The notes beneath the pieces were generated by a model. It saw nothing but the letters and a program-made list of their open reading frames with translations. It had not been told where the DNA came from and ran no database searches. A stretch of DNA of 53,769 nucleotides, from contig CAYYPK010000033.1 of the NCBI GenBank assembly GCA_964473525.1, forward strand, positions 1 through 53,769. Direction: 5' to 3'. Shown here piece by piece: positions 17,639-39,720 of this stretch (positions are counted from its first letter, which is position 1; every line of letters starts with the position of its first letter). This DNA comes from an uncultured bacterium (GTDB taxonomy: Bacteria; Poribacteria; WGA-4E; GCA-2687025). The translations under genes and the position numbers were made by a program.

Positions 17639-18574
17639 ATGGACGCCGCACGCCTGAGGGACTGTCTGGAAGGTGTCACCACGATACCTGTGCTGCCGTT
17701 CGGCGCCGACGGCTCCTTGGACACCGATGGGCATCTACGGAACGTCCGCTACCTGCTCGACAACAACGGCCTCGCGGACGGAATCGACCGGGTGGTGGCC
17801 GTCGCCGGCACGAGCCTGATTCAGCATCTGGACGAGGCCGACCAGACGCCGCTGATCGCCGCGACCGGTCGCGAGATCGGCGACAAGGGAGTGCTGGTCT
17901 CAGGAATCGCCGCGCAGGGACGCGCCGCGGACAGGCTTGTGGCGGCGCAACTGCAATCCGAACGCCCACCGGACGCGTTTCTCATCATGCCTCTGAACGG
18001 CGTTTACGACCCCGCTGGGTATCTGGACACGATGCGCCGACTGGGTGACGCCCACGGGCCGGACGGCGGCCGGTTCGTCGTCTACATGCGCAACGCCCGC
18101 GACGCCGGGGTAATCCGTGAACTGCTGCTGTCGTCGGAGCACTTCATTGGCGTGAAGATCGGGACCGGCATCGAGGACGTCGAGCCCATGGTGTCGGCTG
18201 TGGGCTCTGACAACATGGTCATCTGGGGCATCGGCGAGCTGAATTCCACGGCGGCGCGGAAACTGGGCGCCCGAGGGCACACATCCGGCACCGCGGTCGT
18301 CGCGGCTGGTGTCGCCGACTCCCTCAACAACGCGCATCGACAAGGCGACTACGACGAGGCGTTGCAGCTCGAGGACGCCATCCGCGGGCTGGAGGAGATA
18401 AGATTCCGCCACGGCCGCATGTACAATTACTCGGCCGTCGTGGAAGCGATGATTCTCGGTGGGTTCGACGATGTCGTGGCCGGCGAGGGGCACCCGCTGA
18501 ACCCACGCGTCCCCGCCGACGTGGCGCGCGAGGTCGAGAAGGCTCTCGAGCCGATCCGGGAACACCACGCGTAG
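17639..18574 (+). CDS. Dihydrodipicolinate synthase/N-acetylneuraminate lyase family (class I aldolase) protein
   Basis: TTIPVLPF...DGSLD start typical of the DapA/NAL family. GAGGA RBS 8 nt upstream. Candidate Schiff-base Lys in IGVKIG. Confidence 0.7.
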   Translation: MDAARLRDCLEGVTTIPVLPFGADGSLDTDGHLRNVRYLLDNNGLADGIDRVVAVAGTSLIQHLDEADQTPLIAATGREIGDKGVLVSGIAAQGRAADRLVAAQLQSERPPDAFLIMPLNGVYDPAGYLDTMRRLGDAHGPDGGRFVVYMRNARDAGVIRELLLSSEHFIGVKIGTGIEDVEPMVSAVGSDNMVIWGIGELNSTAARKLGARGHTSGTAVVAAGVADSLNNAHRQGDYDEALQLEDAIRGLEEIRFRHGRMYNYSAVVEAMILGGFDDVVAGEGHPLNPRVPADVAREVEKALEPIREHHA

Positions 18575-18596
18575 GCGCCGCGAACTGGAGCCGCAT

Positions 18597-18743
18597 ATGC
18601 TGGCTGGACGACCACGCACCCGCGCTGAACGCGAGCTACGCGCGAAACGCGCCATGCGACGCGGCGTATTCTACATCGTCTTCCTCATACTGGTGCTCAT
18701 CGCCATCAAATGGCCACATCTTCTGCTGCGGTATCTGCCATAG
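18597..18743 (+). CDS. Possible 48-aa single-TM small protein
   Basis: ATG...TAG ORF MLAGRPRTRAERELRAKRAMRRGVFYIVFLILVLIAIKWPHLLLRYLP with a basic N-terminus plus one hydrophobic helix. Locally lower GC than the surroundings. Below the ORF-track size cut-off. Confidence 0.25.
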   Translation: MLAGRPRTRAERELRAKRAMRRGVFYIVFLILVLIAIKWPHLLLRYLP

Positions 18744-18782
18744 CGGCCGTCGCGTACAGGGAATCAACCGTTGGAGAAACGT

Positions 18783-20111
18783 ATGCACGCTGCACGGCGA
18801 TGGGCAGGCGCGCTCTCTGTCCTGCTCGCCCTCACGGTGTGTGGCACGGCGATGGCGCAGGACGCCCTGCGCATCGTGTCGCCACACCCGCCCGCATTGC
18901 GCGATGAATTCGACACGGGCTTCAAGGCTTGGGTTCTAGCGGAGCACGGTCTCGAAGCGGAAATCGAGTGGATGGACCAGGGCGGCACGTCGAACATCGT
19001 CCGGTTCATCAACTCCGAGTTCAAGCGCGCGCCCGAGGGCATCAACGTCGACATCTTCTTCGGCGGCGGCACGGACTCCTACATCCAGTTGGTGCGCGAC
19101 GGGTACCTCGAGACGTACGTCGTCCCCGACGAGATCCTCGGCGCGGTACAGCCGGACATCTTCGGCGTGCCCATGGTCGACCCTGATCACCAGTGGTACG
19201 GCGTGGCGCTCGCCGGATTCGGCATCATGCACAACAAGCTCCTCGCCAGGCGCTTCCGCCTGCCCGCCGTCATGACGTGGGAAGACCTCACCGACCCGGC
19301 CCTCCAGGGCCGCATCGCGACTGCGGATCCGCGCAACAGTGGCAGCGCGCACATGGTCTACGAGATCATCCTGCAGGCCTACGGCTGGGAGAAGGGCTGG
19401 CAAGTCCTCCAGGAGATGGGCGGGAATGTAAAGGCGTTCACGACAGGCGCCAGCGACGTGCCGAACGAAGTAGCCCTGGGCAATGTCGTCTACGGCCCCG
19501 TGATCGACTTCTACGCGTACGCTCAGATCTCACAGACCGGCGCCGACAAACTCGGCTATGTCACCCCGGACGGCCTGTCGGTCATCAACGCGGACCCCAT
19601 CGGCATCCTCAAGGGCGCCCCACGGCTGGAGCTCGCGCAACGCTTCGTGGACTACTGCCTGACGCCAGCGGCGCAGAAGCTGCTCATGCTGCCCATGGGC
19701 CACCCCGACGGGCCGAAGACCGACAACCTCGCGCGTGCGAGCGTGATACCGGCGCTGTACGAGGAGTTGGGAGACGCCGCCATCGTGGGTGAGAACCCGT
19801 TCGCACTGAAGAACACGATCAAGTACGACGCCACCAAGGGCGGTAAGCGTTGGGGGCTCGTGAACGACCTGTACGGTACGCTCATCATCGACTCGCACAA
19901 GGAGCTGACGGCAGCGTGGAAGGCGGTCGGCGAATCCCAGAGCGAGGAGGCTCGCGCGACGCTCGTCAAGATGCCCCTGACCGAGGCCGAAGCGACGGAG
20001 TTGACCGCGACGTGGGGCTCCGCCGACAACGCCCTCGTGCGCAAGGCGACGATCTCGGAGTGGCGCGGATTCGCGCGCGACAAATACGCAGCCGCGCGGA
20101 AGGCGAGATAG
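18783..20111 (+). CDS. ABC transporter periplasmic substrate-binding protein (family 1; Fe3+/polyamine/thiamine-type)
   Basis: Second ATG (GGAGA 7 nt upstream), signal peptide MHAARRWAGALSVLLALTVCGTAMAQ, and FbpA/PotD-like fold signatures. Confidence 0.75.
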   Translation: MHAARRWAGALSVLLALTVCGTAMAQDALRIVSPHPPALRDEFDTGFKAWVLAEHGLEAEIEWMDQGGTSNIVRFINSEFKRAPEGINVDIFFGGGTDSYIQLVRDGYLETYVVPDEILGAVQPDIFGVPMVDPDHQWYGVALAGFGIMHNKLLARRFRLPAVMTWEDLTDPALQGRIATADPRNSGSAHMVYEIILQAYGWEKGWQVLQEMGGNVKAFTTGASDVPNEVALGNVVYGPVIDFYAYAQISQTGADKLGYVTPDGLSVINADPIGILKGAPRLELAQRFVDYCLTPAAQKLLMLPMGHPDGPKTDNLARASVIPALYEELGDAAIVGENPFALKNTIKYDATKGGKRWGLVNDLYGTLIIDSHKELTAAWKAVGESQSEEARATLVKMPLTEAEATELTATWGSADNALVRKATISEWRGFARDKYAAARKAR

Positions 20112-20121
20112 CCGCCACCGC

Positions 20122-21948
20122 ATGCACAAGCCCACCGGCCGCCGCCCATCCGCATGGTCGCGGTGGCTGAGCCAATACGACCTGACGTGGCGCACGACGC
20201 TGATCCTGGCGGCGATCGTCGCCTTCTTCGGCGTCTTCCTGGTTTACCCGATCGGGTACGTGCTCCGCGAGGCGTTCTTCCTCGGCGGCGACTTCAGCAT
20301 CGGCTTCTTCCGGCTCGACGAGCAGGAGCTGCTGGAGATCTGGAACAGCACGCTCCTGGCGGTCATCACCACCGCCACGACGACGCTCGTAAGCCTCCCC
20401 CTCGCCTACGTTCTCATTCGCTACTCGTTCCCGGGCAAGTCCCTCATGCAGGGCTTCGTGCTTGTGCCCATGATCATGCCGCCCTTCGTTGGCGCGGTGG
20501 GTATCAAGCAGCTGTTCTCGCAGTTCGGCGCGGTGAACATGCTCGCCATGAAGCTCGGGATCATGGACTGGGACACTGTCATCGACTGGTTCGGCGGCAG
20601 CGAGCTACGCAAGCTCGGCGGCGTTGTCTTCCTTGGGACGCTGCATCTCTACCCGATCATGTACCTGAACGTCGCGGCGGCGCTGGCTAACGTGGACCCG
20701 ACGCTCGAAGACGCCGCGCGGAACATGGGCGCTGGACGTTGGCGGCTGTTCCGCACGATCTCGCTCCCCTTGATGATGCCCGGCTACTTCGCGGGCGCGA
20801 TCATCGTGTTCATCTGGGCGTTCACGGACCTCGGCACGCCGCTGATGTTCGAGTTCCGCGACGTCGTCGCCGTGCGGATCTTTGAGTCCAGCCGCGAACT
20901 GGCGACATCGCAGAGCGCGTACGCGCTGGTCGTCATCGTCATCGTGCTGACAGCGGGGTTCTTCTATCTTGCCAAGCGCATCTCCGGCTCCCGCAGGCAC
21001 GAGATGATGGCGCGTGGACATACGGGATCGCTGGAGGTGCCGGCGCGCGGCCGTCAGCTGGCGCTGGTGTACGGGACGGTGCTGTCCATCACGTTCCTCG
21101 CCATCCTGCCGCACATCAGTGTGATACTGACGTCGTTCTCAGAGGCGGGCACCTGGTCTGGGGCGCTCTACGAGGAGGTCGAGTGGAAGGGGAGCATTCT
21201 CCCCCGGGAATTCACGGGTGAGCACTTCGGGCACGTCTTCGTGACGCGCAGCGGCGAGCAGTCGTTCACGTCCGAGGGCGCGCAGAGCATCAAGAACAGT
21301 CTCAAGTACTCGTGCGCCAGCACGTTCATCGACCTCATCTTGGGCGTGACGCTCGCGTGGATGCTCACGCGGCGGCGGATCCCGTGGAAGAACCTGCTCG
21401 ATGCCACGGCGATGATGCCCCTCGCGCTGCCTGGCGTGGTCATGGCGTTCGGGTACGTTGGCAGCTTTGGCGTTGGCCCGTTCGAGGAGGGAAGGCTGTT
21501 CGGCTTCCTGAATCCACGCGTCAACCCCATGTGGCTGCTCATCATTGCGTACTCCGTGCGCCGACTCCCGTACATGATGAGGTCGGCGTACGCCGGGTTC
21601 GAACAGACGAGCGTGACGTTGGAGGAGGCGTCGCACAACCTCGGCGCGAGTCCGAGTCGGACACTCATCAAGATCACGCTCCCGCTGGTAACTGCGAACC
21701 TCATCGCGGGCGCGATACTCGCGTTCTCGTTCGCCATGCTGGAGGTGTCCGACAGCCTCATCCTTGCGGGCCTGCGCTCCGGGTATGACCCCATCACCAA
21801 GGTCATCTACGAGTTCTCGACGCGGCTGGGTGACGGGCAGTACGTAGCCAGCGCCATGGGCGTGCTCGCCATGATCCTGCTAACGTGCAGCCTGCTTGTC
21901 GCCGCGAAGGTGCTTGGGCGACGCATGGGCGATCTGTTCCGGGCCTGA
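20122..21948 (+). CDS. ABC transporter permease with two fused transmembrane domains (FbpB-like)
   Basis: 608 aa and 12 predicted TM segments, with two EAA-like loops (NVDPTLEDAARNMGAGRWRLF; TLEEASHNLGASPSRTLIKITLP). Confidence 0.85.
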   Translation: MHKPTGRRPSAWSRWLSQYDLTWRTTLILAAIVAFFGVFLVYPIGYVLREAFFLGGDFSIGFFRLDEQELLEIWNSTLLAVITTATTTLVSLPLAYVLIRYSFPGKSLMQGFVLVPMIMPPFVGAVGIKQLFSQFGAVNMLAMKLGIMDWDTVIDWFGGSELRKLGGVVFLGTLHLYPIMYLNVAAALANVDPTLEDAARNMGAGRWRLFRTISLPLMMPGYFAGAIIVFIWAFTDLGTPLMFEFRDVVAVRIFESSRELATSQSAYALVVIVIVLTAGFFYLAKRISGSRRHEMMARGHTGSLEVPARGRQLALVYGTVLSITFLAILPHISVILTSFSEAGTWSGALYEEVEWKGSILPREFTGEHFGHVFVTRSGEQSFTSEGAQSIKNSLKYSCASTFIDLILGVTLAWMLTRRRIPWKNLLDATAMMPLALPGVVMAFGYVGSFGVGPFEEGRLFGFLNPRVNPMWLLIIAYSVRRLPYMMRSAYAGFEQTSVTLEEASHNLGASPSRTLIKITLPLVTANLIAGAILAFSFAMLEVSDSLILAGLRSGYDPITKVIYEFSTRLGDGQYVASAMGVLAMILLTCSLLVAAKVLGRRMGDLFRA

Positions 21949-21964
21949 CGCGCGACCACCAGTT

Positions 21965-21985
21965 CCTTCCCCTCGCAGGGGAAGG
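21965..21985 (+). terminator. Perfect 9-bp GC-rich hairpin (CCUUCCCCU-CGC-AGGGGAAGG) after the ABC permease gene
   Basis: Seen directly in the sequence. Followed by UUAGG rather than a full U-tract, which is common in high-GC genomes. Confidence 0.45.
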
Positions 21986-22047
21986 TTAGGATGGGGTCGG
22001 GAACACGCCACTATCCTGCGCGGCGGACCCAGACAAGGAGAAGTGCA

Positions 22048-23061
22048 TTGCAGCCAGCCGACACCCGGCCTCTCGTAGCGAAGACTCGCGGCGATGTTGT
22101 CGAGATGATCCACCGCGGCACGTACGTCGTCGTCGACACGGAAGGCGATGTGGTGCACGCGTGTGGCAACCCGGATATGCCGTCCTACCTCCGGTCCTCC
22201 GCGAAGCCGTTCCAGCTGACGCCGACGATAGAGCGAGGCGCGCACACGGCGTACGGGCTGACGCAGCGCGAGCTGTCGGTGATTTCAGCGTCGCACAGCG
22301 GTGAGCCCGTGCACCTCGACACAGTGCGGTCAGTGCTGCGCAAGGGGGGCGTGCCAGAGACAGCGCTGAAGTGCGGCCCGCACCTGCCCGGAGATGAGGC
22401 CTCCGCGCGCGTCCTCATCAGGCGGCGCATGGTCGCGCAGACGATCCACTCGAACTGCTCCGGGAAGCACAGCGGCATGCTCATCGGCGCCAAGGTCGCC
22501 GGCGAACCGCTGGACACCTACCTCGAGTACGACCACCCGCTGCAGCAGCGGATCCTCGCCACGGTGTCCGAGCTATCCGACACGCCAGCGTCGGACATCG
22601 CAGTTAGCCGTGACGGCTGCGGCGCCCCTATCTTCGCCATCCCGGTGAAGCGCATCGCGCTGCTGTTTGCACGGCTTGGCCGTCCCGACGGGTTGGGGGA
22701 GAACCGCGCGACGGCCCTCAGCACGATACGAGACGCGATCATGGCGGCTCCGTATTTGATGTCCGGCAAAGGCCGCATTGAGGTGGCGCTCATGGAGGGC
22801 GCCCCAGGTAAGGTCGTCCTGAAGTCCGGCGCGCTGGGTGTCTTCGGATTGGGTCTGCCTGAGTTAGGCCTCGGCATCGGCCTCAAGATTGAGGACGGCG
22901 ACGGCGTCACCCGCAACGCGGCGGTGATCCAGTCCCTCCGCAGCGTGGCGGAGGACCATCTGGGCGCTGACTTCCTGGACGGGCTGTGGGAACGCTTCTG
23001 TCCGCGCGTCCACAACCTGCGCGACGAGCTCGTCGGCGAGACGCTATGGATCGGCGACTAG
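22048..23061 (+). CDS. Asparaginase II family protein (PF06089-like)
   Basis: TTG start with AAGGAG 7 nt upstream; the alternative ATG at 21991 is also possible. Motifs ASHSGEP and NCSGKHSGML are typical of the L-asparaginase II family. Confidence 0.7.
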   Translation: MQPADTRPLVAKTRGDVVEMIHRGTYVVVDTEGDVVHACGNPDMPSYLRSSAKPFQLTPTIERGAHTAYGLTQRELSVISASHSGEPVHLDTVRSVLRKGGVPETALKCGPHLPGDEASARVLIRRRMVAQTIHSNCSGKHSGMLIGAKVAGEPLDTYLEYDHPLQQRILATVSELSDTPASDIAVSRDGCGAPIFAIPVKRIALLFARLGRPDGLGENRATALSTIRDAIMAAPYLMSGKGRIEVALMEGAPGKVVLKSGALGVFGLGLPELGLGIGLKIEDGDGVTRNAAVIQSLRSVAEDHLGADFLDGLWERFCPRVHNLRDELVGETLWIGD

Positions 23062-23083: not shown

Positions 23084-24811
23084 CTACAGCACGGCAATGC
23101 TCTGCTCGAAACGGAAGCCGTAGCGTGTCACGGTCGTGGCGCCGTCGTCAGCAGTGGCGCCGTCGAGTAGCAGCCGCAGCACGGTGGCGTCCTCGAGCGG
23201 CGAGCCAGCCGCGAGCCGGCCGTCGGCGGCCGTGACGTCGCGCCGCGCGTCCTCCCAGGCGGTCAGCTCCGCCGATGTCCACCACTCCATCCCTCTGTCC
23301 CGCGCGTAATTCGCCAGGTCGTGGAACGAGTCAGCGACCCCCTCCTTGGCTATGTGCGCGGGGTGGTAGAGGAAGTGCGCGACGCCGTACCGCTGTCGCG
23401 CGGCGTCCGTCAGCACCTGCGCAAACGCCGCCGGCGCCGTGATGACGAGATCCTGCGTCATCAGGGGCAGGCAGTACGCGTCGATGAAGCGCGGCGTCGA
23501 CCCGTGCGTGTCGAGGGGCTTCCAGAGGTGGCACGAGCCGAACGGGAAGCCGATCGTGCCTGTCTTGCTCGGCCCCTTCGATTGGTCCACGCGTATGCCT
23601 TCGTCGACGCACCAGTCGAAGAACTCGAGACGGCCCTCCCACCTCGTGTAGTGGTTCTTGTTGCTGATGATCTCGTCGCGCCCCGTCATGTCTCGCAGCC
23701 AGGCGGCCTGCGCCGAGAAGTTCTCCTTCCCCCATGCGCGCACGCCGCGACCCTCGAGGGCGTCGTAGTGCAGGGCGACCTCGGAGCCATCGTCACGGAC
23801 GCGCCGGTAGAAGGCTGGGGCATAACCGCCCGGGTAGAGCATGCACCACGTCGTGCGCACGTCCGCGTCGAGGCAAACCTGATGGAGCTTGTCCGCGACG
23901 ACCGGATCGTTCCCATCGGAGTCGTGCGATATGTGCCCGACGGCGGGCAGACCGCGCGGCCAGTACCAGAGCATCGTCAGTGGCACGCGCGACAACGACG
24001 CCAGGTTCAGGACCGAGCCCAGCAGCAACTCCCGCAGGCTGTCTGCGACCGGATCGCGGAAGATCGGGAATGAGTGCAGCGCGTCAGGAGGCCCTACGTC
24101 CGCTGGCGCCGACGCGCCGCCGCCCCACGAGCCCGGGAACAGCCCACGCGGTACGCGCGCGTCCTGCCGGTCTCGCTCCCAGTCGAGGACGAGACCGTCT
24201 TCGGCCTTGAGGATGCCGTCGTCGAGCGGCGCGGTGCCGTCCGGGGCGGGCGCGCCGTCTTCGCGCACGGGGTCTGCCTGCTGGATGTGCGCGACCGCCG
24301 AGACGATGTCCGGGCCGATGAGCCCGGCGTGACCGCCCACGTGTCTGCTCCACGTGACTGCCGATCTGCCGTGGAGCGTGGCGATCTCGTCGGCGCTGCG
24401 CGCCGCCACCGTGATTCCTCCGTAGACATGCAGTGGGCCAGACGCGGTCGCCATCGCGGGGTGCGACGACACCGTCGGCTCGATCCATCCAGGCCCGCAG
24501 TCATGCGGGGACATGACGCCCAGGAGGTCTTCCAGTCCACCTGTGGTCCCAACGCAGAGGACGGCTTCGCCTCTCGCCACGTGTCGAGCGACGGCGTCTC
24601 GCCACGCGGTCGACAGCGTGCCGCCGCAGACAAGCACGATGGGCAGGAGGGCGGATGGCGGGCCAGCGCCGTCAGCGACGACGTGGAAGATGCCCGCGTG
24701 CGTGAGGATCTCCTCGATGTACCGCGCCGTCGGTGGGCTGCCAGCTCCGTACAGAACAGACACGTGCGGCGGCCCGGAAGCAACCTCGGGCTGTGGAGCG
24801 GCGTCATTCAT
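23084..24811 (-). CDS. Two-domain protein: N-terminal class-I glutamine-amidotransferase-like/ThuA-like domain plus C-terminal putative polysaccharide-deacetylase (NodB-like) domain
   Basis: Internal ATG (MNDAAPQ...) overlaps the upstream stop by 8 nt (ATGAATGA). HISHDSDGND...LHYD...FLYHPAHI resemble divergent CE4 motifs. The first 87 codons of the supplied ORF are out-of-frame overlap and are discounted. Confidence 0.45.
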   Translation of the reverse strand: MNDAAPQPEVASGPPHVSVLYGAGSPPTARYIEEILTHAGIFHVVADGAGPPSALLPIVLVCGGTLSTAWRDAVARHVARGEAVLCVGTTGGLEDLLGVMSPHDCGPGWIEPTVSSHPAMATASGPLHVYGGITVAARSADEIATLHGRSAVTWSRHVGGHAGLIGPDIVSAVAHIQQADPVREDGAPAPDGTAPLDDGILKAEDGLVLDWERDRQDARVPRGLFPGSWGGGASAPADVGPPDALHSFPIFRDPVADSLRELLLGSVLNLASLSRVPLTMLWYWPRGLPAVGHISHDSDGNDPVVADKLHQVCLDADVRTTWCMLYPGGYAPAFYRRVRDDGSEVALHYDALEGRGVRAWGKENFSAQAAWLRDMTGRDEIISNKNHYTRWEGRLEFFDWCVDEGIRVDQSKGPSKTGTIGFPFGSCHLWKPLDTHGSTPRFIDAYCLPLMTQDLVITAPAAFAQVLTDAARQRYGVAHFLYHPAHIAKEGVADSFHDLANYARDRGMEWWTSAELTAWEDARRDVTAADGRLAAGSPLEDATVLRLLLDGATADDGATTVTRYGFRFEQSIAVL

Positions 24812-26201
24812 CGGTGAGCGCCTCCTGGGCGTGCAACATGGTGGGGATGTCCGTCGGCAGCTCGCCCCGCTTGCGGAACATCGCGAGGCACACGTCCCAT
24901 ACGGCGGGGTCGTACGCCGTGAGCTCGGCCCACCGGCGCAGCGTGAAGTACGTGTCGCCTTCGTCCGTGTCGACCCGGTCGCCGACGTTGGGGGCGGTCG
25001 TTGAGCCGTTCCACATGACGTCCAGCAGCGTGCGGGCCACGCGCATCGCGTCCTCGGCGTCGAAGACGACACCCCGATGGGCGCCCTCGACCACGAAACC
25101 CACGTTGATGGCGGCGTGGCTGGAGTCCTCAGGCCCGCTCGAGCCGCCTTCCCAGTCCCAGTAGTTCCACTCGTATGCGTCGCCCACCCGGCGTAGGTTC
25201 GCCTGGAAGTTGGTCGCCATCCGTTCCGCCCGGCCGCGCAGCCCGAGCGACGGCAGGTACTTATGCAGCGCCATGTACGCCTGCGCGTGCATCGCGTATT
25301 GGTTGTGGGGCAGGACGCGCCCGGGAGTGCGTTCCGCGGGCGAGTCGGTGGCGGCGTACGCGCCTCGGCCGGGCGCCGTGTCGACCCAGCAGACGTCCCA
25401 CTTCGGGACGAAGTTGTCCTCGATGAGCGACAGGTATCGCTCGGCGGCGGCGCGCGTCTCGGCGTCGTCGCCCTCCATGGCCACCTCGATGAACAGGGCC
25501 AGCGGGTACAGCAGCATACCCTCGTGGATGAGGTACTCCAGCGGCGCGACGGCTGTCGTCTCGACGGCGTACACGTCGCCCGCGGCGGGGCGCCGCGTTG
25601 TCGTGATCTTCACCCCCGGCACGCCGGGAACGGCGTCGCCGTCCAATGTGTGGTTCGCCCGTTCGCCCGTCGCGACGTTCTCGACGGTGTACGCGCCATC
25701 TCCCGCGAAGTCCAGCCGGTACGCGGCGCCGGTGACTTCGTGGGCCGCCGCGATGTCCGCGATCCGCGTCTGCACGTCCAGGTCGCCGCCGTGAGGCTCA
25801 GTTAGCCGGGCGTGGGCGACTGAGTACCTATCGGTCTGCCACCCGGCGTAACCGTCGCGGTCGTGATCAGACATACACGCGAAGACAGCTTCGGCGTGCT
25901 CGCGCACCTTGGCGAGCCACGCGCGGTCGCCCGTGACGCGCCACAGATACATGTAGTCGGCCAAGACGTAGCTTTCACCCCAGCCCAACTGAGCGGCGTC
26001 GGCGCTGTCGGAATAGCCCTTGCCGTCGTTCCTCTCGGCGTCGAAGACGCGGTACCGCTCGACGTACTCGTCCACGGGCAATCGGTCGGGCGACGTTGCG
26101 TGGGATGCGCTGATGGACACGGCGATGAGCGTTCCTATCGTTAGCCGGCGCCACGCGCGCCGACGACCAGGCTGGCGGCCAGCGACACGGTCACTCTCCA
26201 T
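24804..26201 (-). CDS. Exported hypothetical protein, possibly an (alpha/alpha)-toroid polysaccharide-lyase-like enzyme
   Basis: Start MESDRV... followed by a TM/signal segment LTIGTLIAVSISASHA. NQYAMHAQAYMALHKY is reminiscent of the N-H-Y catalytic cluster of PL5/PL17 lyases. The call is weak. Overlaps the upstream stop by 11 nt. Confidence 0.4.
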   Translation of the reverse strand: MESDRVAGRQPGRRRAWRRLTIGTLIAVSISASHATSPDRLPVDEYVERYRVFDAERNDGKGYSDSADAAQLGWGESYVLADYMYLWRVTGDRAWLAKVREHAEAVFACMSDHDRDGYAGWQTDRYSVAHARLTEPHGGDLDVQTRIADIAAAHEVTGAAYRLDFAGDGAYTVENVATGERANHTLDGDAVPGVPGVKITTTRRPAAGDVYAVETTAVAPLEYLIHEGMLLYPLALFIEVAMEGDDAETRAAAERYLSLIEDNFVPKWDVCWVDTAPGRGAYAATDSPAERTPGRVLPHNQYAMHAQAYMALHKYLPSLGLRGRAERMATNFQANLRRVGDAYEWNYWDWEGGSSGPEDSSHAAINVGFVVEGAHRGVVFDAEDAMRVARTLLDVMWNGSTTAPNVGDRVDTDEGDTYFTLRRWAELTAYDPAVWDVCLAMFRKRGELPTDIPTMLHAQEALTDE

Positions 26202-28833
26202 CGTCTGTCTCGGCGAACGACTCTCCCGCGGGGATGTCCAGGCGACGGGCGCCGGCCCGGAGGTACTCCCCGTGCCAGGCGGCGGCGTGCTCGACGGAGC
26301 CGTCGGACGCGTAACGCACGAATCCCAGACGCGCCGCCATCTCAATGTCCACTTCGGGAACCGTCGCCGCGACGGGCTCGGCGTTGCCGTCCCACGCCCG
26401 AGCGTCCGCGTCGAGGGCCACTACGACGTCGCGACGGCCGTCGTCGAGCGTGACCTCCAGGGCAACGTCGGCGCTCGCCGGGGCGGCTCCGTTGCGAGGC
26501 GCGATGGTCAGCCGGCGCGCGGCCACGACCCGCGGCGTGTCTATGTACGGCTCGAGGACGCCGACGAACGCGCTGCTAAGGTCGGCGCCCCCGCGTCGCA
26601 CGAGCAGACGTGGTACCCACACCTCGTCGACGCCCCAATTCGACCCACTGAGCGCCACCCAGCCCTCGGCCGTGAGAGCCTCGGCGTCCTCCGTCAGACC
26701 CGTGTACCTCAGGCAGGGAGCGGCATCGCCGGCCAGCAGCTCGTACCGGTCCTCAACTTGGAACGTGGCGCGCCACGCGTCGGCTGGGTCGCGGTCGACC
26801 CGATACTCCCGCATCTGCCACGTCGCGTCCATGTCTTCGGCTGGGCCTAGGTCCAGGCCGCTCGTCGTCACCTCCGCGAAGTGACTGTTGAGGGCGTACA
26901 GGTGCTCCGATCCGCCGGCTACGCGGAAGATGTCCACGACGTAGGAGGACGAGTCGTCCACGTCAACCAGCAGCGCCGTGCGGTCGTACCGCGTGCCGTT
27001 GACGAGCTCGGGACAGGCCGCGCGCAGTCCGCGCACGACCCGACCCTCGGCCCAGAGGAGCGTGGTGCCTGAGGCCGGCTTCTGGTTCTCCCCGTCGACG
27101 ACTACGGTGTTGTGCGCCGCCGTGGCCTTGTACCAGTTGGCGCGCTCGGAGTACCAACCGCCGTACTGCACGGGCGGATACCCTAGCTCCGGTAGCAGGT
27201 CCAGACCGTGCGCGAAGAGGCCGAGGTTCATTCCGTCCGCGTGGCCGTGTCTGCCGCCGGCTTGATAGTGCATCCACAGCGCGCGACGCTGCGTACCCCT
27301 ACCCGACCGGACGATGCCTAGGCCCCACTCCTCCTTGTTGACGCTGCCTGGTGGGGTCGCGCGTGCCGCGGCCTCCGTGACGCCAGCGCGCATGCCCGCG
27401 AGATCCGGCACGAACCAGTCGTCCGGGATGGCCGCCGCGTCTCCTCCCGCCCCATCCAGCATTGCGCGGGCGAACATCGCATCTCCGGTGATGCCGTGCA
27501 GGCGCCAGAACAGGGTGTACGCCGAGGGTGTCAGGCCTGGCTGTGAGGGGAAGGACGCTCCGGCGTACCTGCCGTAGGGCCGGGCGAAGCCGCCGCAGTC
27601 GCCGACCATCGGGTAGTAGGCGTCGAGGCACCGCGTGTCGTAGTGGAACCGGTACATGTCGTGCAGCCGCGGATGGCGCGCGACCAGCTCGTCGAGGTAC
27701 GTGTCCTCGAGCATGGACACAAGCGACAGGATGTCGGCGACGCCCGTCGGCCCGATGACGGAGTAGCCGCTCAGTCCCTTTTCGCCCGTGACCCCATCCA
27801 CCGCGGTCGCGTCGGCAATGAGGTCGTCGAGCATCTCCGTCACTCGGTGGCGCGATTCCGGCCACCTCAGCGTGGCTTCGGCGGCGATCTGCGTCATCTC
27901 TTCGCGCGGGTAGTTCGTCTGTAGCTTCTTGTGGTCGCCCAGTGAATCCCCGACGATGCGCGTCTCGATGTTCGCCTGGATGTCGGCGAGGCCCGCCTTG
28001 CCCCGTGGCACGTCGATGCTGGAGGCCTTCGCCGCAAGGAACGTCACTGCGTCGGAGTCGGGGGCCAACCCCTCGTAGATTCGGTCGTAGCCCAGGATGA
28101 GCTGGCGGGTCTCCTCGCAGGCGTCGTGCCACACGGACACGTACCCTCGGTGCCCCGCCGTCTCGTACACCAGGCCCTGTGACGCGTAGTCGTAGTCGGG
28201 GTAGATGTCGGCGACGCGGTCAAGGACCACGAGCGCCCGGTTGGCGTACGCCGGATCCTGAGTGACTACGTACGCGCGGGACAGCGCCTCGACGCCCGCG
28301 ACAACGAGTTGCTTCCAGTGTCCGTAGATGAGGTAAGCGCCGATGAAGCGCCACGTCTTGTCGCCGTCGCGGTAGCCCTCGCCGTCGTCCACGCCGAAAC
28401 CCCGGAGCGAGTCGTCGGGCTCTGGATGCTCGACGTTGTAGAGTGTCGCCCTGTCTGCGAGCGATGCGTCGAAGATGCCCGCCCCGTCCAGGCCTGACTC
28501 GTAGTAGCTCGCGAAGTCGTTCTTTGGGAACGTCTCGTCGCACCTCGGGCAGGCGAGAGACCACGGGCGATTCACGGCGTCTATCCGCCAGTCATACATA
28601 GTGACGGACTGCTCGCACGCCGGGCAGTGGCCGTCCGACCACACCATCCACGACCGCGTCATCGTCGGCCCCACGACCATGTCCCACAGCTCGTCGTACG
28701 TGCGGGCCATCCACGGCTCGGCGGCTGCTACGAAACCATCGGCCGCTGCGGCGAGCGTAGGCGACGCGTCGGTAGCGGCGCGCATCCTGTCCAGCGTCGA
28801 GGTCGGATAGAACGCGCTACGTGTCTTCGCCAT
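26191..28833 (-). CDS. Heparinase II/III-like family protein (alpha-toroid plus beta-sandwich), cytoplasmic, with an N-terminal CxxC...CxxC zinc-ribbon-like segment
   Basis: C-terminal HGHADGMNLGLFAHG...LLPELGYPP...WYKATAAHNTVVVDG matches the Hepar_II_III pattern. No signal peptide. The sequence includes GHCPACEQ...CPRCDETF. Confidence 0.6.
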   Translation of the reverse strand: MAKTRSAFYPTSTLDRMRAATDASPTLAAAADGFVAAAEPWMARTYDELWDMVVGPTMTRSWMVWSDGHCPACEQSVTMYDWRIDAVNRPWSLACPRCDETFPKNDFASYYESGLDGAGIFDASLADRATLYNVEHPEPDDSLRGFGVDDGEGYRDGDKTWRFIGAYLIYGHWKQLVVAGVEALSRAYVVTQDPAYANRALVVLDRVADIYPDYDYASQGLVYETAGHRGYVSVWHDACEETRQLILGYDRIYEGLAPDSDAVTFLAAKASSIDVPRGKAGLADIQANIETRIVGDSLGDHKKLQTNYPREEMTQIAAEATLRWPESRHRVTEMLDDLIADATAVDGVTGEKGLSGYSVIGPTGVADILSLVSMLEDTYLDELVARHPRLHDMYRFHYDTRCLDAYYPMVGDCGGFARPYGRYAGASFPSQPGLTPSAYTLFWRLHGITGDAMFARAMLDGAGGDAAAIPDDWFVPDLAGMRAGVTEAAARATPPGSVNKEEWGLGIVRSGRGTQRRALWMHYQAGGRHGHADGMNLGLFAHGLDLLPELGYPPVQYGGWYSERANWYKATAAHNTVVVDGENQKPASGTTLLWAEGRVVRGLRAACPELVNGTRYDRTALLVDVDDSSSYVVDIFRVAGGSEHLYALNSHFAEVTTSGLDLGPAEDMDATWQMREYRVDRDPADAWRATFQVEDRYELLAGDAAPCLRYTGLTEDAEALTAEGWVALSGSNWGVDEVWVPRLLVRRGGADLSSAFVGVLEPYIDTPRVVAARRLTIAPRNGAAPASADVALEVTLDDGRRDVVVALDADARAWDGNAEPVAATVPEVDIEMAARLGFVRYASDGSVEHAAAWHGEYLRAGARRLDIPAGESFAETDDGE

Positions 28834-28847
28834 GGTTCATCTCCGAG

Positions 28848-29585
28848 TCAGCCGAGGGCCTGGTCGACGGCGAGGGTCAGGTATTCCTCGATCCGGCGCA
28901 ACGCCCACTCTCCCAGCGCGACCGACGCCGTCTCCCGCACCCGCTGGCCTCGGTAGTGTCCCGGTTCGCCTGTCGCGCGGTCGGCGACGGCCGCGAGTCG
29001 CGCGCCGCCCCCTCGGAGCGCCATGAAGATGCTCGTCTCCCACTTGCCGCCGTGGTCGCCCCCGCCGCCGCACGCGAGTGGCTCCCAGAACGGGATCACC
29101 GTGACGCTGGGGGTCGAGCATTCGGCGGCGATGGTGGCGACGGCGTCGGTCTGCACCGTCGGGTAGTGGCCCGTGTAGGCGACGACGGCGCGGCAACCGA
29201 GGTTGGCGAGTCCATCGACCGTCTGGCGCAAGTGGCGCCGGAAGACGTCCACAGTGAACAGCATGTCGCCAGCGTCGGCAGCCCCCGCGCGCCAAGAGCT
29301 TTCGTGGCCTGGCGCGGGGTCACCGTGTACGCCCGACAGGTGCGACGGCGGCAGCACGACACCTCGGAGCGTCTCCGACAGTCTCAAGCAGACGCCGTGC
29401 GCCTTGAGACCGTCCAGGCCCCACGGGAGGTGCTCGCCGTGCTCTTCGAGGATGCCGAGAGGAACCCAGGCGAGCGGACGGTCGGCGATGAGACGGGGCA
29501 GCTCGTCGCCGTAGAGCCACTCGTACCGCCGCTCGATGCGTCGTGAGGGGCGGCGTTGCTGCTGCTCCATCGGTGACGACCCCAT
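28848..29585 (-). CDS. Creatininase-family amidohydrolase
   Basis: LPLGILEEHGEHLPWGLD, an H..D..E metal-binding pattern, and GHYPTVQ resemble creatinine amidohydrolase/MftE-like proteins. Confidence 0.75.
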   Translation of the reverse strand: MGSSPMEQQQRRPSRRIERRYEWLYGDELPRLIADRPLAWVPLGILEEHGEHLPWGLDGLKAHGVCLRLSETLRGVVLPPSHLSGVHGDPAPGHESSWRAGAADAGDMLFTVDVFRRHLRQTVDGLANLGCRAVVAYTGHYPTVQTDAVATIAAECSTPSVTVIPFWEPLACGGGGDHGGKWETSIFMALRGGGARLAAVADRATGEPGHYRGQRVRETASVALGEWALRRIEEYLTLAVDQALG

Positions 29586-29604
29586 GGCGCGCGTCGAGGT
29601 GGAC

Positions 29605-30789
29605 TCAGTCGCGCCAGTGTGACGAGCCCTCGGGAGCCGCGTAGGCGATGGCCAACTCCGGCGTTTCGAGCCGCGCGCCGCCCTCGTGCAGGCTGTCCAC
29701 CGCGAACGCCGTCTGACCCGTCGTCAGCAGCGTGCGCTCAACGGGGTACGTGGCGACACCCGTGTGGAACATCTGCTCGATGTTGTACACGAGTGGGCTG
29801 AAGAAGCTCGCCAGACTCGCGCGCCGCGGGGGCATGGGCAGGTACATCTGCGTCGACGTCACGGCCCCGTCGCCCAGCCGCGCGGAGAAGTTGAAGTCCT
29901 CGAGGAAGCCACTCAGCAGGAACATGCTCGCTTTGAGACCGTCGCCGTATTCCATCAAGTACACGACCGGGTCGCTGACATGCGCGCGCGCGGTGTCCAG
30001 GTCCACGCGGAAGTCGCCGTCGTCCTCGGACTTCGGCTTGCGCGTGTGGCTGCGCGACACGGCTGCCCAGAACAACTCGGGGTCTACGCGCCCGTCGGAG
30101 AGCGTGTCCCACGCCGCATCCCCGCGTAGCGCCTGGATGCTCGATACGCCGACTTCGCCGTCGCCGCGCCGCTCCACCATGCACTGGATCGTCTCCAGTC
30201 CGTGGAAGTCGTAGCTGTCCACACCTCCGTAGCACGCGCAGACCGCCTCGCGGACGTCGGCTCCTAGCGGCAACTCGAGGTCGGGGACGCGCCATGTCAC
30301 GGGCAGAGACGAGCCAGCCATGAACGCGAAGCCGAGCTCGCGAGACACGTCGTACATCTCGACCGCCTGCCCCCAGTCGTACGAGAGGTGCTTGTCGTTG
30401 AAGACTGGGGCGGAACGCCCGCTGTCCCGGAACACGTCGGCGATCTGCGTGAAGAACTCGTACCGCGGGTACTTCCGCTGTCCCTTTTCGGTGCTTGGGT
30501 ATAAGCCGTGCTCGCCGACGAGCAGGACGCCGTCCACGGCCAGCTTCTCGCCACCCAGCGTTAGCGCTTCGGCGATGGTTGGGTAAAGTGGGACGCCGAA
30601 CCGTTCGCACCGCTCCTCGCCGAAGTCGTTCTCGCCGATCTGGTCAATGAACATCGACGCCAGCTCGAACGGTGGCATGTGGTGCCGGCCCTGCCAGCCG
30701 TAGCCCTCGAGGAATCGGTCCACGATGTGTTGGGCGTGCGAGTACTTGTGGTAGATCGTGTTGATCGCGGCGATCTTCTTGCGACCCAT
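29605..30789 (-). CDS. Conserved hypothetical protein (394 aa), first gene of the glycan-enzyme operon
   Basis: Codon usage is coherent and the gene is tightly spaced (19 nt) to the creatininase gene. No motif I can name. Confidence 0.5.
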   Translation of the reverse strand: MGRKKIAAINTIYHKYSHAQHIVDRFLEGYGWQGRHHMPPFELASMFIDQIGENDFGEERCERFGVPLYPTIAEALTLGGEKLAVDGVLLVGEHGLYPSTEKGQRKYPRYEFFTQIADVFRDSGRSAPVFNDKHLSYDWGQAVEMYDVSRELGFAFMAGSSLPVTWRVPDLELPLGADVREAVCACYGGVDSYDFHGLETIQCMVERRGDGEVGVSSIQALRGDAAWDTLSDGRVDPELFWAAVSRSHTRKPKSEDDGDFRVDLDTARAHVSDPVVYLMEYGDGLKASMFLLSGFLEDFNFSARLGDGAVTSTQMYLPMPPRRASLASFFSPLVYNIEQMFHTGVATYPVERTLLTTGQTAFAVDSLHEGGARLETPELAIAYAAPEGSSHWRD

Positions 30790-30887
30790 GGCACTCCTAA
30801 CGGGCGGCGGGACGCGAACCCCTCGGCGAGGACAGCGCCGCGATTATCCCACACGGAATGGCGCCTGTCGACCAGGCTGGGTGGGCA

Positions 30888-31784
30888 TCAGGCGCGACGA
30901 GCGGTGAACGTCGCCTCGGCGAGGGTATCGAATTGTGACCGGATGGTCTTGAGCCTCGCGCGCGCCGCGTCGATCTTGGACGCGAGGTCGGCGCGCAGGC
31001 CGCCGACCAGGTCGTCGCCTCTCGCCTGCGCTTCCTCCGCCTGCCGCATGAGCGCGTAGGTGTCCTTGCGCTTGATGCGTTCGACGTCGCTCTCGATGTC
31101 GCGCGCCGCGCGATCCACATCGAGCGCTTCGCGGAACAGCCGACGTTCGCAAGCGTCGGCGCCCTCGTCCGTCAGGTCGTCGCCGTCGTCCAACGTGGCC
31201 GCGATCTGACGCAGACGCCGCACATCCTCCGCCTCGTAGGCGTCGTTGATGAGCGCCATCAGTCGTTCGGCATCGCCCGGATCGACTACACCGTCGGTCT
31301 TGTCCGGGTGGTACCGCTTCGCCAGGCGAAGGTAGAGCGTGCGCAGCTCGGCGGGGTCGTCGCTCTGCCTCGCGGGCGCCGCCGCCCGGCGGGTAGACGT
31401 CGTCCGCGACTCCGAGCCCGGCTTGCCGGTCGTGGGTTCGCCCGCCACGCGTTCCCGCTCCCGCTTGAAGGCGTTGTCCACGCGCCGCTGTAGATGCTCC
31501 GCGTTGCGCGTGAAGCCCTTCTCGACCAGGCGCGCGCGGTATAGCAGCTCCTTGATGTCCAACTGCACACGGTCCAGGTCGCCGTATAGAGAAGCCACGC
31601 GGGCGGCGTATTCGTGCTCGAACGTCGCCAACGCTGCCTCGATGGCCGCGCGCTCGAGGGTGAGAGTGATGATCTTCGCGCGCGCCGCGGCGATCCGCGT
31701 TCGCTGTGTCTCGATGCGCGCTTGCTGCCCGGACTGCTTGCGTGGCGCGACCGCAGCTTCGGCTGTCGGCGCCGCGTCCATCAC
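30888..31784 (-). CDS. J-domain (DnaJ-like) coiled-coil protein
   Basis: Central J-domain LYLRLAKRYHPDKTDG (HPD motif) flanked by coiled-coil, Ala/Arg/Glu-rich regions. Start overlaps the band-7 gene stop by 4 nt. Confidence 0.7.
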   Translation of the reverse strand: MMDAAPTAEAAVAPRKQSGQQARIETQRTRIAAARAKIITLTLERAAIEAALATFEHEYAARVASLYGDLDRVQLDIKELLYRARLVEKGFTRNAEHLQRRVDNAFKRERERVAGEPTTGKPGSESRTTSTRRAAAPARQSDDPAELRTLYLRLAKRYHPDKTDGVVDPGDAERLMALINDAYEAEDVRRLRQIAATLDDGDDLTDEGADACERRLFREALDVDRAARDIESDVERIKRKDTYALMRQAEEAQARGDDLVGGLRADLASKIDAARARLKTIRSQFDTLAEATFTARRA

Positions 31785-32545
31785 GCCGGACCCGCAGGTG
31801 TCGTCAACTTGCCCATGAGCGATCGGACGATCTGCAACGGCAGCGGGAGGATCGTCGTCGAGTTATTCTCGGACGCCACCTCCGTGATGCTCTGGAGGAA
31901 GCGCAGGTGCATCGCCGTGGGGTGTGTCCCGAGTATCTCGGCGGAGCTCGACAGTTGCTCGGCTGCGGACAGTTCGCCGTCGGCGTGTATGACCTTGGCG
32001 CGTCGCTCGCGTTCCGCCTCGGCGCGCTTCGCCAGCGCACGCTTCATCGTCTCCGGCAACTGCACGTCCTTCATGTCTACTGACAGGATCTCGACGCCCC
32101 ACTCCGCCACCTGTTGCGCGATGATTCCTTGTAGGTCGGCGCCGAGGCTCTCCTGCTTCGTGAGCAGCGTGTCGAGGTCGGCTCGCCCGAGCACGCTGCG
32201 GAGGGTCGTCTGAGCCACCTGCGCGGTCGCGAAGGCGACGTCCTCGACGCCCAATATCGCACGGCTCGGGTCCACGATGCGGCGGTACACGACCGCGTTG
32301 ACCGTCACGGAGACGTTGTCGCGCGTGATGACGTCCTGCGGCGGGATATCGTCGGTGTAGATGCGCAGATCGACCTTGACGACGCGATCCACGAACGGGA
32401 GCAGCACGATGAGGCCCGGCCCGCGCACGCCCCGGAACCGGCCGAGTCGGAACACGACGGCGCGCTCGTATTCGCGCAGCACGCGGAACGTGTTGACGAG
32501 GACCAGAATCGCGACGGCCGCGCCTACGGCCCACTGAAAGAACAT
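31781..32545 (-). CDS. SPFH/band-7 (stomatin-like) membrane protein
   Basis: Start MFFQWAVGAAVAILVLV (TM) followed by an SPFH core (VVFRLGRF...RIYTDDIPPQDVITRDNVSVTVNAVVYRR...) and a C-terminal coiled coil. Confidence 0.8.
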   Translation of the reverse strand: MFFQWAVGAAVAILVLVNTFRVLREYERAVVFRLGRFRGVRGPGLIVLLPFVDRVVKVDLRIYTDDIPPQDVITRDNVSVTVNAVVYRRIVDPSRAILGVEDVAFATAQVAQTTLRSVLGRADLDTLLTKQESLGADLQGIIAQQVAEWGVEILSVDMKDVQLPETMKRALAKRAEAERERRAKVIHADGELSAAEQLSSSAEILGTHPTAMHLRFLQSITEVASENNSTTILPLPLQIVRSLMGKLTTPAGPA

Positions 32546-32596
32546 GCGATGTCCACGGGAGAAGTGACTGCGGATGAGCGCGCGGGACGCCACCCG

Positions 32597-38491: not shown

Positions 38492-38619
38492 CCGGCCGCG
38501 CCGTGGTGACCGCAGCGGCGCTCTGCGCCTCCGGCGTGTGGCCTGTGTTACACTGCTGCCGCCGCGCGGCCGGTGGTAATCGCCCAGCTAGGACTTGGAC
38601 GACGGGCCTGACATTGCAC

Positions 38620-39720
38620 ATGCGCATGGCTGCTCTCCTTTCACTGCTCACGTTCGTCGTGGCGCCGACGCGCCTGCCTGCCCAGTCCGAGGCGTCTGAG
38701 TACCGCATCCGTCCCGGCGACACGTTGCGCATCGTCGTGCTCAACCGCGTGGAGTACGGCCAGGAGGTGTTCGTTCGCGACGACGGCAGGATCGACTACT
38801 TCGTCCTGGGCTCCATCGACGTTGATGACATGACGCTGGGCGCCCTGAGAACGGCCCTGGTCGACGGGCTGCGAGGGCACTTGACCGAGCCGGAGGTCCT
38901 GATCGTGCCGGTTCCGCGGGAGGCGTTCGTGTACGTCGGTGGACAGGTCGCGTCGCCGGGGAAGTACGGCTTCATGGAGCCGGTCATCGACGTACGGAAG
39001 GCGCTGGCCCTGGCCGGGTCCGCCTTGCCCGTGTCGTCTGACCTGTCACGCGTCCTTGTGTTGCGCGCCGGCGAGCCCGTCGAGACGTATGACTTGACGA
39101 CCGCGCCAGGGCCGCACATAGAGATACGGCGTGGCGATGTGGTGTACGTGCCGGAACTGTGCAGAATCCGTGTGACCGGCAATGTCCGGGAGCCTGGGGT
39201 CTTCTACGTCCAAGGGTCAGCGACGGCGGGCTACGCCCTGTCGCTCGCTGGCGGGATCGTCGATGACCAGGGCACCCTAGCGCGGCTATCCGTGCTACGC
39301 GCCGACGGGTCGACGGAGCCCGCGCGGCTGGACTCCGACGCGCTCACCGCGGAAGGCGCCGAGGTGGTCCTCCGGCACGGTGACGCTCTTCACGTGCCGA
39401 ACGCCTATCTCGTCGAGGAGATCAGCGTCGTCGGTTACGTGCAGAGCCCTGGCCTATATCGCGTGCGTGGGCCGGTCTCGGTTGGCCGCGCGCTCGCGCT
39501 CGCGGGTGACGCCGTGCGTGAGGAAGCCAATCTGGGCGAAGTCGACATCGTGCGTATCGACGGGACTGTTGAGAAGGTCGACCTTCGGTCGGGCGGGTCG
39601 AGCGTAGCGGTGCGGCCCGGCGAGACCGTGCGGGTCAACCGACGGTTCCAGATGAACTGGCCGATGCTGTTCAGCGCCGTGTCGACCGCCGTGCTTCTTA
39701 CGAGCCTCGTTAGGAACTAG
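38620..39720 (+). CDS. Polysaccharide export protein (Wza/SLBB-domain family)
   Basis: Signal peptide MRMAALLSLLTFVVAPTRLPAQS. An N-terminal PES-like segment (YRIRPGDTLRIVV) and repeated SLBB-like units (GDVVYVPE..., GETVRVNRR) are followed by a C-terminal TM helix. Confidence 0.65.
   Translation: MRMAALLSLLTFVVAPTRLPAQSEASEYRIRPGDTLRIVVLNRVEYGQEVFVRDDGRIDYFVLGSIDVDDMTLGALRTALVDGLRGHLTEPEVLIVPVPREAFVYVGGQVASPGKYGFMEPVIDVRKALALAGSALPVSSDLSRVLVLRAGEPVETYDLTTAPGPHIEIRRGDVVYVPELCRIRVTGNVREPGVFYVQGSATAGYALSLAGGIVDDQGTLARLSVLRADGSTEPARLDSDALTAEGAEVVLRHGDALHVPNAYLVEEISVVGYVQSPGLYRVRGPVSVGRALALAGDAVREEANLGEVDIVRIDGTVEKVDLRSGGSSVAVRPGETVRVNRRFQMNWPMLFSAVSTAVLLTSLVRN

Follow-up and report, generated by a model that had tools for sequence, protein, structure and literature searches.

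Five co-directional genes on the minus strand (G1 to G5, positions 23084 to 30789) of a 53,769-nt stretch of DNA (the window) from an uncultured Poribacteria-like bacterium, one of a marine group about which little is known, raise the question of whether they work as one unit and, if so, upon what. On our best reading, two enzyme pairs, G1 with G2 and G5 with G3, have merged in this lineage only, together with G4. It is quite possible, though by no means assured, that this clade-restricted transcription unit, which joins the two enzyme pairs and a rare exported protein, degrades an acetylated uronic-acid glycan or oligosaccharide. If so, the block would supply a small group of enzymes, open to experimental test, for a glycan that lies outside the known CAZyme families.

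The ORF coordinates agree with the arrangement described in the first-pass annotation: G1 and G2 are 19 nt apart and G2 and G3 14 nt apart, while the next two junctions overlap by 11 nt (G3 and G4) and 8 nt (G4 and G5). G1, G3 and G5 are each preceded by a GGAG-type ribosome-binding site, and a consensus scan placed a sigma-70-like promoter candidate (30843 to 30871, minus strand; TCGACA-17-GATAAT, with TG before the -10 hexamer) within the 98-nt intergenic interval ahead of G1. Gene calls published for identical contigs (L006 and L007) agree on the five genes. All five have homologs, ranging in number from 17 (G4) to more than 8000 (G1). The whole window gave no hits in Rfam and tRNA scans.

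At least eight contigs share the order G1 to G5, at 66%–86% amino-acid identity, and the overlapping stop and start codons are retained in relatives, while the downstream flank varies, with a rearrangement breakpoint exactly after G5. The tight junctions, the one promoter-like site, and the persistence of order and coupling next to a differing downstream flank all count for a single unit. The full five-gene cluster was seen only in one Poribacteria-affiliated clade. G1, G2, G4 and G5 were absent within 10 kb of the G3 homologs in 79 other species, and neighbor clustering around those 79 homologs yielded no conserved partner; G1 occurs without the other block genes in a Poribacteria MAG, as does G5 in Pirellulaceae. 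Two pairs recur outside the clade: G1 with a creatininase-family gene, and G5 with G3.

The conserved block carries no transporter, regulator, unsaturated-uronate hydrolase or KDG-pathway gene. We considered the adjoining plus-strand DHDPS-like, ABC and asparaginase II genes as a transporter for the block and rejected them, since relatives carry other genes at that place; the neighboring ABC system is not beside the cluster in relatives L001, L008 and L096. Since no conserved transporter, sensor/regulator or downstream sugar-acid enzymes are linked to the block, we do not class it as a polysaccharide-utilization operon.

G1 (29605 to 30789, minus strand; 394 aa), which had been listed as an unknown protein, is a divergent protein with the Gfo/Idh/MocA fold, made up of a Rossmann domain plus an alpha/beta domain, and the structures nearest to it are those of NAD-dependent glycosidases and of dehydrogenases acting on sugars or cyclitols. 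Sequence methods barely register this relationship: G1 matched no Pfam family at E ≤ 0.01, including PF01408 and PF02894, sequence searches of NCBIfam and the PDB also returned nothing, and a profile search of the PDB reached Gfo/Idh/MocA proteins at E 0.46 only (hhalign probability 17.5%). The known systems with which we compared G1 were the NAD-dependent glycosidases (8qc2; GH109 2ixb), GenD2, inositol dehydrogenase, WlbA and DgpA. G1 differs from known Gfo/Idh/MocA proteins in being missed by PF01408, PF02894 and NCBIfam, and in an altered loop. Specifically, the Gly-rich dinucleotide loop is lacking; the sequence after beta-1 reads AAINTIYHKYSHAQH, with no GxGxxG/A, a feature conserved family-wide, and the loop position is occupied instead by a conserved T-x-Y-x-K-Y-S-H-A-Q-H. 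In addition, an NDKH motif stands in place of EKP. The family is unusually conserved, with its more than 8000 proteins 60%–70% identical across phyla.

G2 (28848 to 29585, minus strand; 245 aa, or 240 aa in some annotations, which start it five codons later) belongs, as previously annotated, to the creatininase family (PF02633, 66.9 bits; cut-off 31.3; E 2e-18) and is a putative metal-dependent hydrolase. It is not an equivalog of either creatinine amidohydrolase or MftE (TIGR04448, 34.2 bits vs. 235; TIGR03964, 28 vs. 172). The metal-binding and catalytic motifs of the creatininase family are E-x-H, D, H-x-E and H...E-T-S. Aligned to creatinine amidohydrolase, G2 shows LEEHGEHL, GLD and DHGGKWETS, in agreement with E-x-H...D, GH and H-G-G-x-x-E-T-S, but GHYE reads GHYP, with Pro in place of Glu, so that the motif set is retained in part. 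One member of this family, IolN, is the ring-opening hydrolase of the Thermotoga inositol pathway and adjoins a Gfo/Idh/MocA-type oxidoreductase, as G2 does here. We found no literature on heparinase together with creatininase, or on creatininase together with Thermotoga inositol catabolism.

The pairing of G1 with a creatininase-family gene extends beyond this clade. In 11 of 80 metagenome loci, such a gene lay within two genes of a G1 homolog and in the same direction. These creatininase genes form two lineages, 31%–38% identical to each other, and G2 represents a third, 25% identical to those that neighbor G1 homologs elsewhere. Recurrent neighbors of the pairs include genes for an RraA-like aldolase, MFS or EamA transporters, an SDR, an aldo-keto reductase and a protein of the enolase superfamily; DUF362 and an M19 dipeptidase also accompany the pair. 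Such company suggests that the pair acts on a small molecule and not on a polymer. This small-molecule catabolic company of the G1–G2-type pair, like the clade specificity of the five-gene set, counts against a glycan pathway.

G3 (26191 to 28833, minus strand; 880 aa) is a heparinase II/III-like protein (PF07940, 48.8 bits; threshold 24) with an N-terminal, zinc-ribbon-like Cys4 motif (C70, C73, C95 and C98) that is invariant across 35 homologs, which bears out its original description. With a profile of the G3 family, the PDB search found PL17 alginate lyases at E ~3e-18 over residues 507 to 844, and the PL40 enzyme Uly1040 at E 6e-16. The beta-sandwich domain aligns with the PL17 lyases, and the alignment covers the HGHxD and AHNT motifs; G3 has in common with PL17, PL39 and PL40 (Uly1040, PDB 9vtk) a Hepar_II_III_C beta-sandwich and the HGHxD...AHNT metal/base motif. 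The N-terminal 500 residues matched no Pfam or PDB sequence family, and the toroid there gave only a 26-residue fragment against PL17 (i-Evalue 3e+02). Further motifs of G3 are FPxNDF, N307-x-P309, Y357, D412, H529-x-H531 and H574-N575, among which N307, Y357, D412, H529 and H531 are invariant in the alignment. To our knowledge, neither the Cys4 nor the FPxNDF motif occurs in the PL17, PL39 or PL40 families.

The catalytic set of Uly1040 comprises Asn245, Tyr305, Asp358 and His485-x-His487, and in the His/Tyr mechanism of PL39 and PL40 the Asn is the neutralizer, the Tyr the acid, and an Asp-His-metal tetrad activates the His base (PMC12915356). The order and spacing of the invariant Asn, Tyr, Asp and His-x-His of G3 resemble this set, in a mapping by spacing alone; a truncated G3 profile (residues 290 to 548) intended to align the toroid residues with Uly1040 returned nothing relevant. 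Unlike in PL17, PL39 and PL40, the position after the Asn is variable in G3 and is followed by an invariant Pro. The family is large: it numbers 591 clusters at E ≤ 1e-30, and 537 genome stretches hold confirmed relatives. Some homologs are fused to a CE15 glucuronyl esterase, CBM9 or Ig domains. G3 has no signal peptide, nor do most members of its family. Indeed, G1, G2 and G5 likewise have no N-terminal signal-like segment, in line with the proposal of a mostly cytoplasmic set.

G5 (23084 to 24811, minus strand; 575 aa counted from ATG) had been described as a fusion of GATase1-like and NodB-like domains. Both folds are present: the N-terminal domain is GATase1-like (DUF4350/ThuA-like), and the C-terminal domain has the CE4-type deacetylase beta/alpha barrel. 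The NodB family assignment itself did not hold, as neither PF01522 nor any other Pfam family matched G5 or its 39 aligned homologs, and sequence searches of NCBIfam and the PDB, as well as a profile search of the PDB, found nothing. The canonical CE4/NodB motifs are TFDD, H(S/T)xxH, RxPY, DxxDW and LxH. TFDD and HSxxH are absent from G5, which reads H-D-S-D-G, L-H-Y-D, N-H-Y-T-R-W-E and F-L-Y-H-P-A-H where CE4 motifs are expected. We compared G5 with CE4-type structures (3rxz, HP0310 PgdA 3qbu and ArnD 8t0j) and with the two-domain exopolysaccharide deacetylases PelA (9cgy) and Agd3 (6nwz). Unlike these deacetylases, G5 lacks PF01522 and the canonical motifs, carries the N-terminal GATase1-like fusion, and is predicted to be cytoplasmic here; its homologs in Planctomycetota are Tat-exported. 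In an unrelated contig (L179), G5 and G3 homologs (61% and 48% identity) recur as a pair with a 4-nt overlap, both without signal peptides, at a locus from which G1 and G2 are missing.

G4 (24804 to 26201, minus strand; 465 aa counted from ATG) is the rarest member, with its 17 homologs found among 5.8 billion proteins. It is the sole signal-like protein of the block, and the hydrophobic N-terminal segment is also present in most full-length homologs, although the NCBI start (438 aa) removes it. Of the earlier label "exported lyase-like," therefore, the signal-like segment stood, while "lyase-like" was dropped, since an hhalign comparison of G4 with the G3 family gave a negative result. Its one recognizable part is an insert resembling FlgK/FlgL D2 at residues ~147 to 212 (profile search of the PDB, FlgL 5ziz, E 1.4e-5), and PF21158 matched 3 of 15 homologs; the rest of G4 had no Pfam, NCBIfam or PDB match. 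Two of the four distant G4 homologs lie inside exopolysaccharide/O-antigen-type clusters (L012 and L013).

From these observations we infer a substrate class, an order of steps, a catabolic direction and a catalytic role for each enzyme. G4 would act outside the cytoplasm. Inside the cell, G5 would strip acetyl groups, and G3 might then cleave beside a uronic acid by beta-elimination, using an Asn/Tyr/Asp/His-x-His-metal constellation like that of the PL39 and PL40 lyases. The sugar so released could be oxidized by G1, and the oxidized product hydrolyzed by G2. The original idea of a pathway that depolymerizes and de-N-acylates an acidic amino-sugar glycan fits the folds, the fusions of G3 homologs to CE15 and CBM9, and the recurrence of the G5–G3 pair; the clade specificity of the set and the lack of a conserved adjacent transporter speak against it. 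The absent Gly-rich loop of G1, which leaves NAD binding in doubt, and the absent TFDD and HSxxH motifs of G5 also count against the scheme.

We considered that the block might instead comprise two independent modules under one promoter, with G1 and G2 breaking down a small compound (a cyclitol, a sugar acid or one of amide type), G3, G4 and G5 acting on a glycan, and no metabolite shared between them. This seems rather unlikely, but it would account for the G5–G3 pair of L179, as well as for the company of the G1–creatininase pairs, which is of the small-molecule type and never included G3, G4 or G5 in the 80-locus metagenome sample. Against such a division are the tight packing (two overlaps, and gaps of at most 19 nt) and an order kept across the clade as the downstream flank changes; these argue for selection on the whole unit, although they do not prove a shared substrate. 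Another possibility, which we regard as very unlikely, is that the five genes are merely neighbors in this lineage, with synteny inherited in the absence of functional coupling. Upstream of the block, Band_7 and DnaJ-like genes are conserved beside it as strongly as the block itself, so general synteny is high in this clade, and each of the families is found independently elsewhere. Against simple synteny stand the stop and start codons that still overlap in relatives, the downstream breakpoint exactly after G5, and the recurrence of two of the pairs in unrelated lineages.

It is also unlikely, if somewhat less so than synteny without coupling, that the block, instead of breaking down a nutrient, alters the envelope or exopolysaccharide of the cell itself. 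In that case G3 would be a C5-epimerase or a trimming lyase, G5 a de-N-acetylase of the PelA/PgaB/Agd3 type, and G1 a nucleotide-sugar 3-dehydrogenase of the WlbA/GnnA type. However, genes for a glycosyltransferase, flippase, polymerase or aminotransferase are absent from the block, and the polysaccharide-export gene of the window (38503 to 39720) is 8 kb away on the opposite strand. Moreover, neither G3 nor G5 has a signal peptide here, although enzymes that modify polymers in this way work outside the cytoplasm.

We also entertain, with considerable doubt, the reading that this operon unites founding members of two large, uncharacterized enzyme families, the loop-altered G1 and the Cys4 heparinase-like G3. 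If so, the G1–creatininase pairing could mark a new oxidize-then-hydrolyze route for sugars or cyclitols, and G3, mostly cytoplasmic, would constitute a new family of polysaccharide lyases or epimerases. Both the altered-loop Gfo/Idh/MocA-like family and the Cys4 heparinase-like family are widespread, and domain libraries miss or only half describe them; the recurrent G1–creatininase and G5–G3 pairs offer entry points for assigning functions to proteins labeled "hypothetical," of which soil and marine metagenomes hold thousands. We also note that members of the G1 family usually occur as a tandem pair; in the one pair for which N-termini were read, a Tat signal was present on one copy only.

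The five minus-strand genes at 23084-30789 (G1 to G5 in transcription order) agree exactly in their ORF coordinates with the layout in the first-pass annotation: they are co-directional, with 19 nt between G1 and G2, 14 nt between G2 and G3, and overlaps of 11 nt (G3/G4) and 8 nt (G4/G5). They encode a divergent Gfo/Idh/MocA-fold protein (G1, 29605-30789, 394 aa), a creatininase-family protein (G2, 28848-29585, 245 aa), a heparinase II/III-like protein (G3, 26191-28833, 880 aa), a protein with a signal-like N-terminus (G4, 24804-26201, 465 aa counted from the ATG), and a protein with GATase1-like and CE4-type deacetylase-fold domains (G5, 23084-24811, 575 aa counted from the ATG), in a window with a G+C content of ~67%. 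GGAG-type ribosome-binding sites lie 5' of G1, G3 and G5, and a sigma-70-like site (TCGACA-17-GATAAT, with TG upstream) is predicted by consensus match within the 98-nt gap before G1. The same five genes were called independently on public contigs of identical sequence. Annotations differ in their starts for two of them, giving 245 or 240 aa for G2 and either 465 or 438 aa for G4. We favor the longer G4 start because homologs with a complete N-terminus have a hydrophobic N-terminal segment. The NCBI G4 protein (P0241, 438 aa) begins 27 codons 3' of the ATG, losing the signal-like segment kept by homologs, and its start is probably mis-called.

G1 had been called unknown, which holds to the extent that no sequence match was found in Pfam, NCBIfam or PDB, but a Gfo/Idh/MocA fold could be assigned. 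In this family (>8000 members, 60-70% identity across phyla, many with Tat signals), a conserved T-x-Y-x-K-Y-S-H-A-Q-H takes the place of the Gly-rich loop, and NDKH stands at the EKP motif position in G1. In 11 of 80 metagenome loci sampled for G1 homologs, a gene of the creatininase family (PF02633, E 1e-57) is co-directional with the G1 homolog and no more than two genes away, and a tandem G1 pair occurs in 50 of 71 loci. The 11 loci show two arrangements. Their creatininases belong to two lineages with 31-38% identity between them; G2, with 25% identity to these, represents a third. Further neighbors at these loci are an RraA-like aldolase, MFS and EamA transporters, DUF362 and peptidase M19. 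In several of the loci L099-L178, the tandem pair is followed by genes for a creatininase-family protein and an RraA-like aldolase. In the pair on L118 (7995-11215) only the second copy bears a Tat signal, a hint that the two may be exported together as a heterodimer. The assignment of G2 itself to the creatininase family stands (PF02633 at 66.9 bits, cut-off 31.3), with scores far under the equivalog cut-offs of creatininase and MftE. G2 aligns to Pseudomonas creatinine amidohydrolase via LEEHGEHL, GHYP and DHGGKWETS motifs, with GHYP in G2 where the enzyme has GHYE.

The description of G3 as heparinase II/III-like with an N-terminal Cys4 segment was borne out by a Hepar_II_III_C domain and by four cysteines (C70, C73, C95, C98) that are invariant in the family, as are FPxNDF, N307-x-P309, Y357, D412, H529 and H574; H531 is nearly invariant. 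A profile built from 35 sequences of the family is matched by PL17 alginate lyases (E about 3e-18, residues 507-844) and by the PL40 ulvan lyase Uly1040 (E 6e-16), which share motifs including HGHxD and AHNT with the G3 family, while the N-terminal 500 residues of G3 gave no family match. In Uly1040, Asn245/Trp246 act as neutralizers, Tyr305 as the acid, and His485 as the base, activated by Asp358-His487-Mn (PMC12915356). The G3 invariants may correspond to these residues, as inferred from their identical order and similar spacing (50, 55 and 117 residues, compared to 60, 53 and 127). G3 relatives form 591 clusters (50% identity) at E<=1e-30 and were confirmed at 537 genome stretches; the 80 loci kept come from Planctomycetota, Armatimonadota, Gemmatimonadota, Latescibacterota, Hydrogenedentota, Verrucomicrobiota and others. 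Roughly two thirds of the family lack a signal peptide (judged from their N-termini), and some members are fused to CE15 glucuronyl esterase, CBM9 or Ig domains, which supports carbohydrate substrates.

G5 has invariant residues in motif-like order (H296, D297, D299, H348, D350, H387, H479, H483, H486) that differ from the canonical CE4 motifs, and its planctomycetal homologs carry Tat signals. On contig L179 (8142-12505), homologs of G5 (61% identity) and G3 (48% identity) overlap by 4 nt. Neither has a signal peptide, and G1, G2 and G4 are absent from the contig; this is an independent deacetylase-lyase-like pair. G4 is rare (17 homologs), and we found nothing in support of its earlier description as lyase-like. 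Its family match is limited to an insert resembling the D2 domain of flagellar hook-associated FlgL/FlgK (residues about 147-212; 5ziz, E 1.4e-5; PF21158 in 3 of 15 homologs).

In our tentative reading, two enzyme pairs that recur elsewhere have merged with an exported protein in this lineage alone, and the operon would degrade an acetylated uronic-acid-containing glycan. The folds, the fusion partners of G3, the pairing of G5 with G3 and the G4 context point to such a glycan; substrate, order and direction are inferred. Outside the clade, the five-gene cluster dissolves, and the G1-creatininase and G5-G3 pairs recur. None of the four partners lies within 10 kb of full-length G3 homologs in 79 species outside the clade, nor is any other neighbor conserved there; a Poribacteria MAG has G1 on its own, as Pirellulaceae have G5. 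That the operon holds two independent modules under one promoter seems rather doubtful. Of four distant G4 homologs, two are located inside polysaccharide-synthesis clusters. A role of the operon in envelope or EPS remodeling is unlikely. At least eight contigs share the full G1-G5 order (66-86% identity), among them GCA_018644665.1 (labeled Candidatus Poribacteria); in these, a Band_7 and a DnaJ-like gene always precede the block, and the downstream flank varies with a breakpoint exactly after G5. Mere synteny is quite improbable.

If the operon does degrade such a glycan, G4 would act extracellularly, G5 would deacetylate in the cytoplasm, G3 would carry out cytoplasmic beta-elimination, and the released sugar would be oxidized by G1 and then hydrolyzed by G2. 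This last step would parallel the oxidize-then-hydrolyze logic of the Thermotoga inositol pathway, in which the ring is opened by a creatininase-family hydrolase, IolN. Multi-enzyme glycan-processing operons are already known as a kind; this one is unusual in that its families are missed or half-described by domain libraries, it is without a transporter or regulator, and it occurs in one clade only. It is possible, if somewhat unlikely, that G1 together with the creatininase forms a novel oxidative route, and that G3 represents a novel family of lyases or epimerases.

Directly upstream of the block, in every relative examined, is the Band_7/DnaJ-like pair, which in the window (30888-32593, minus) is a Band_7/SPFH gene with a 4-nt overlap with that of a 298-aa protein (sub-threshold DnaJ match), 98 nt with the promoter-like site separating the pair from G1. 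On the other side, a plus-strand run (17639-23061), in which no ATPase gene was seen, encodes a DHDPS-like protein, an SBP_bac_6-type binding protein, a permease with two fused BPD_transp_1 domains and asparaginase II, and converges on G5 with 22 nt between G5 and the asparaginase gene; relatives L001, L008 and L096 lack it beside the cluster. Farther away (3706-8999, minus), a 618-aa homocysteine S-methyltransferase-MTHFR fusion directly precedes, with a 13-nt overlap, a full-length MetH-type methionine synthase (1149 aa).
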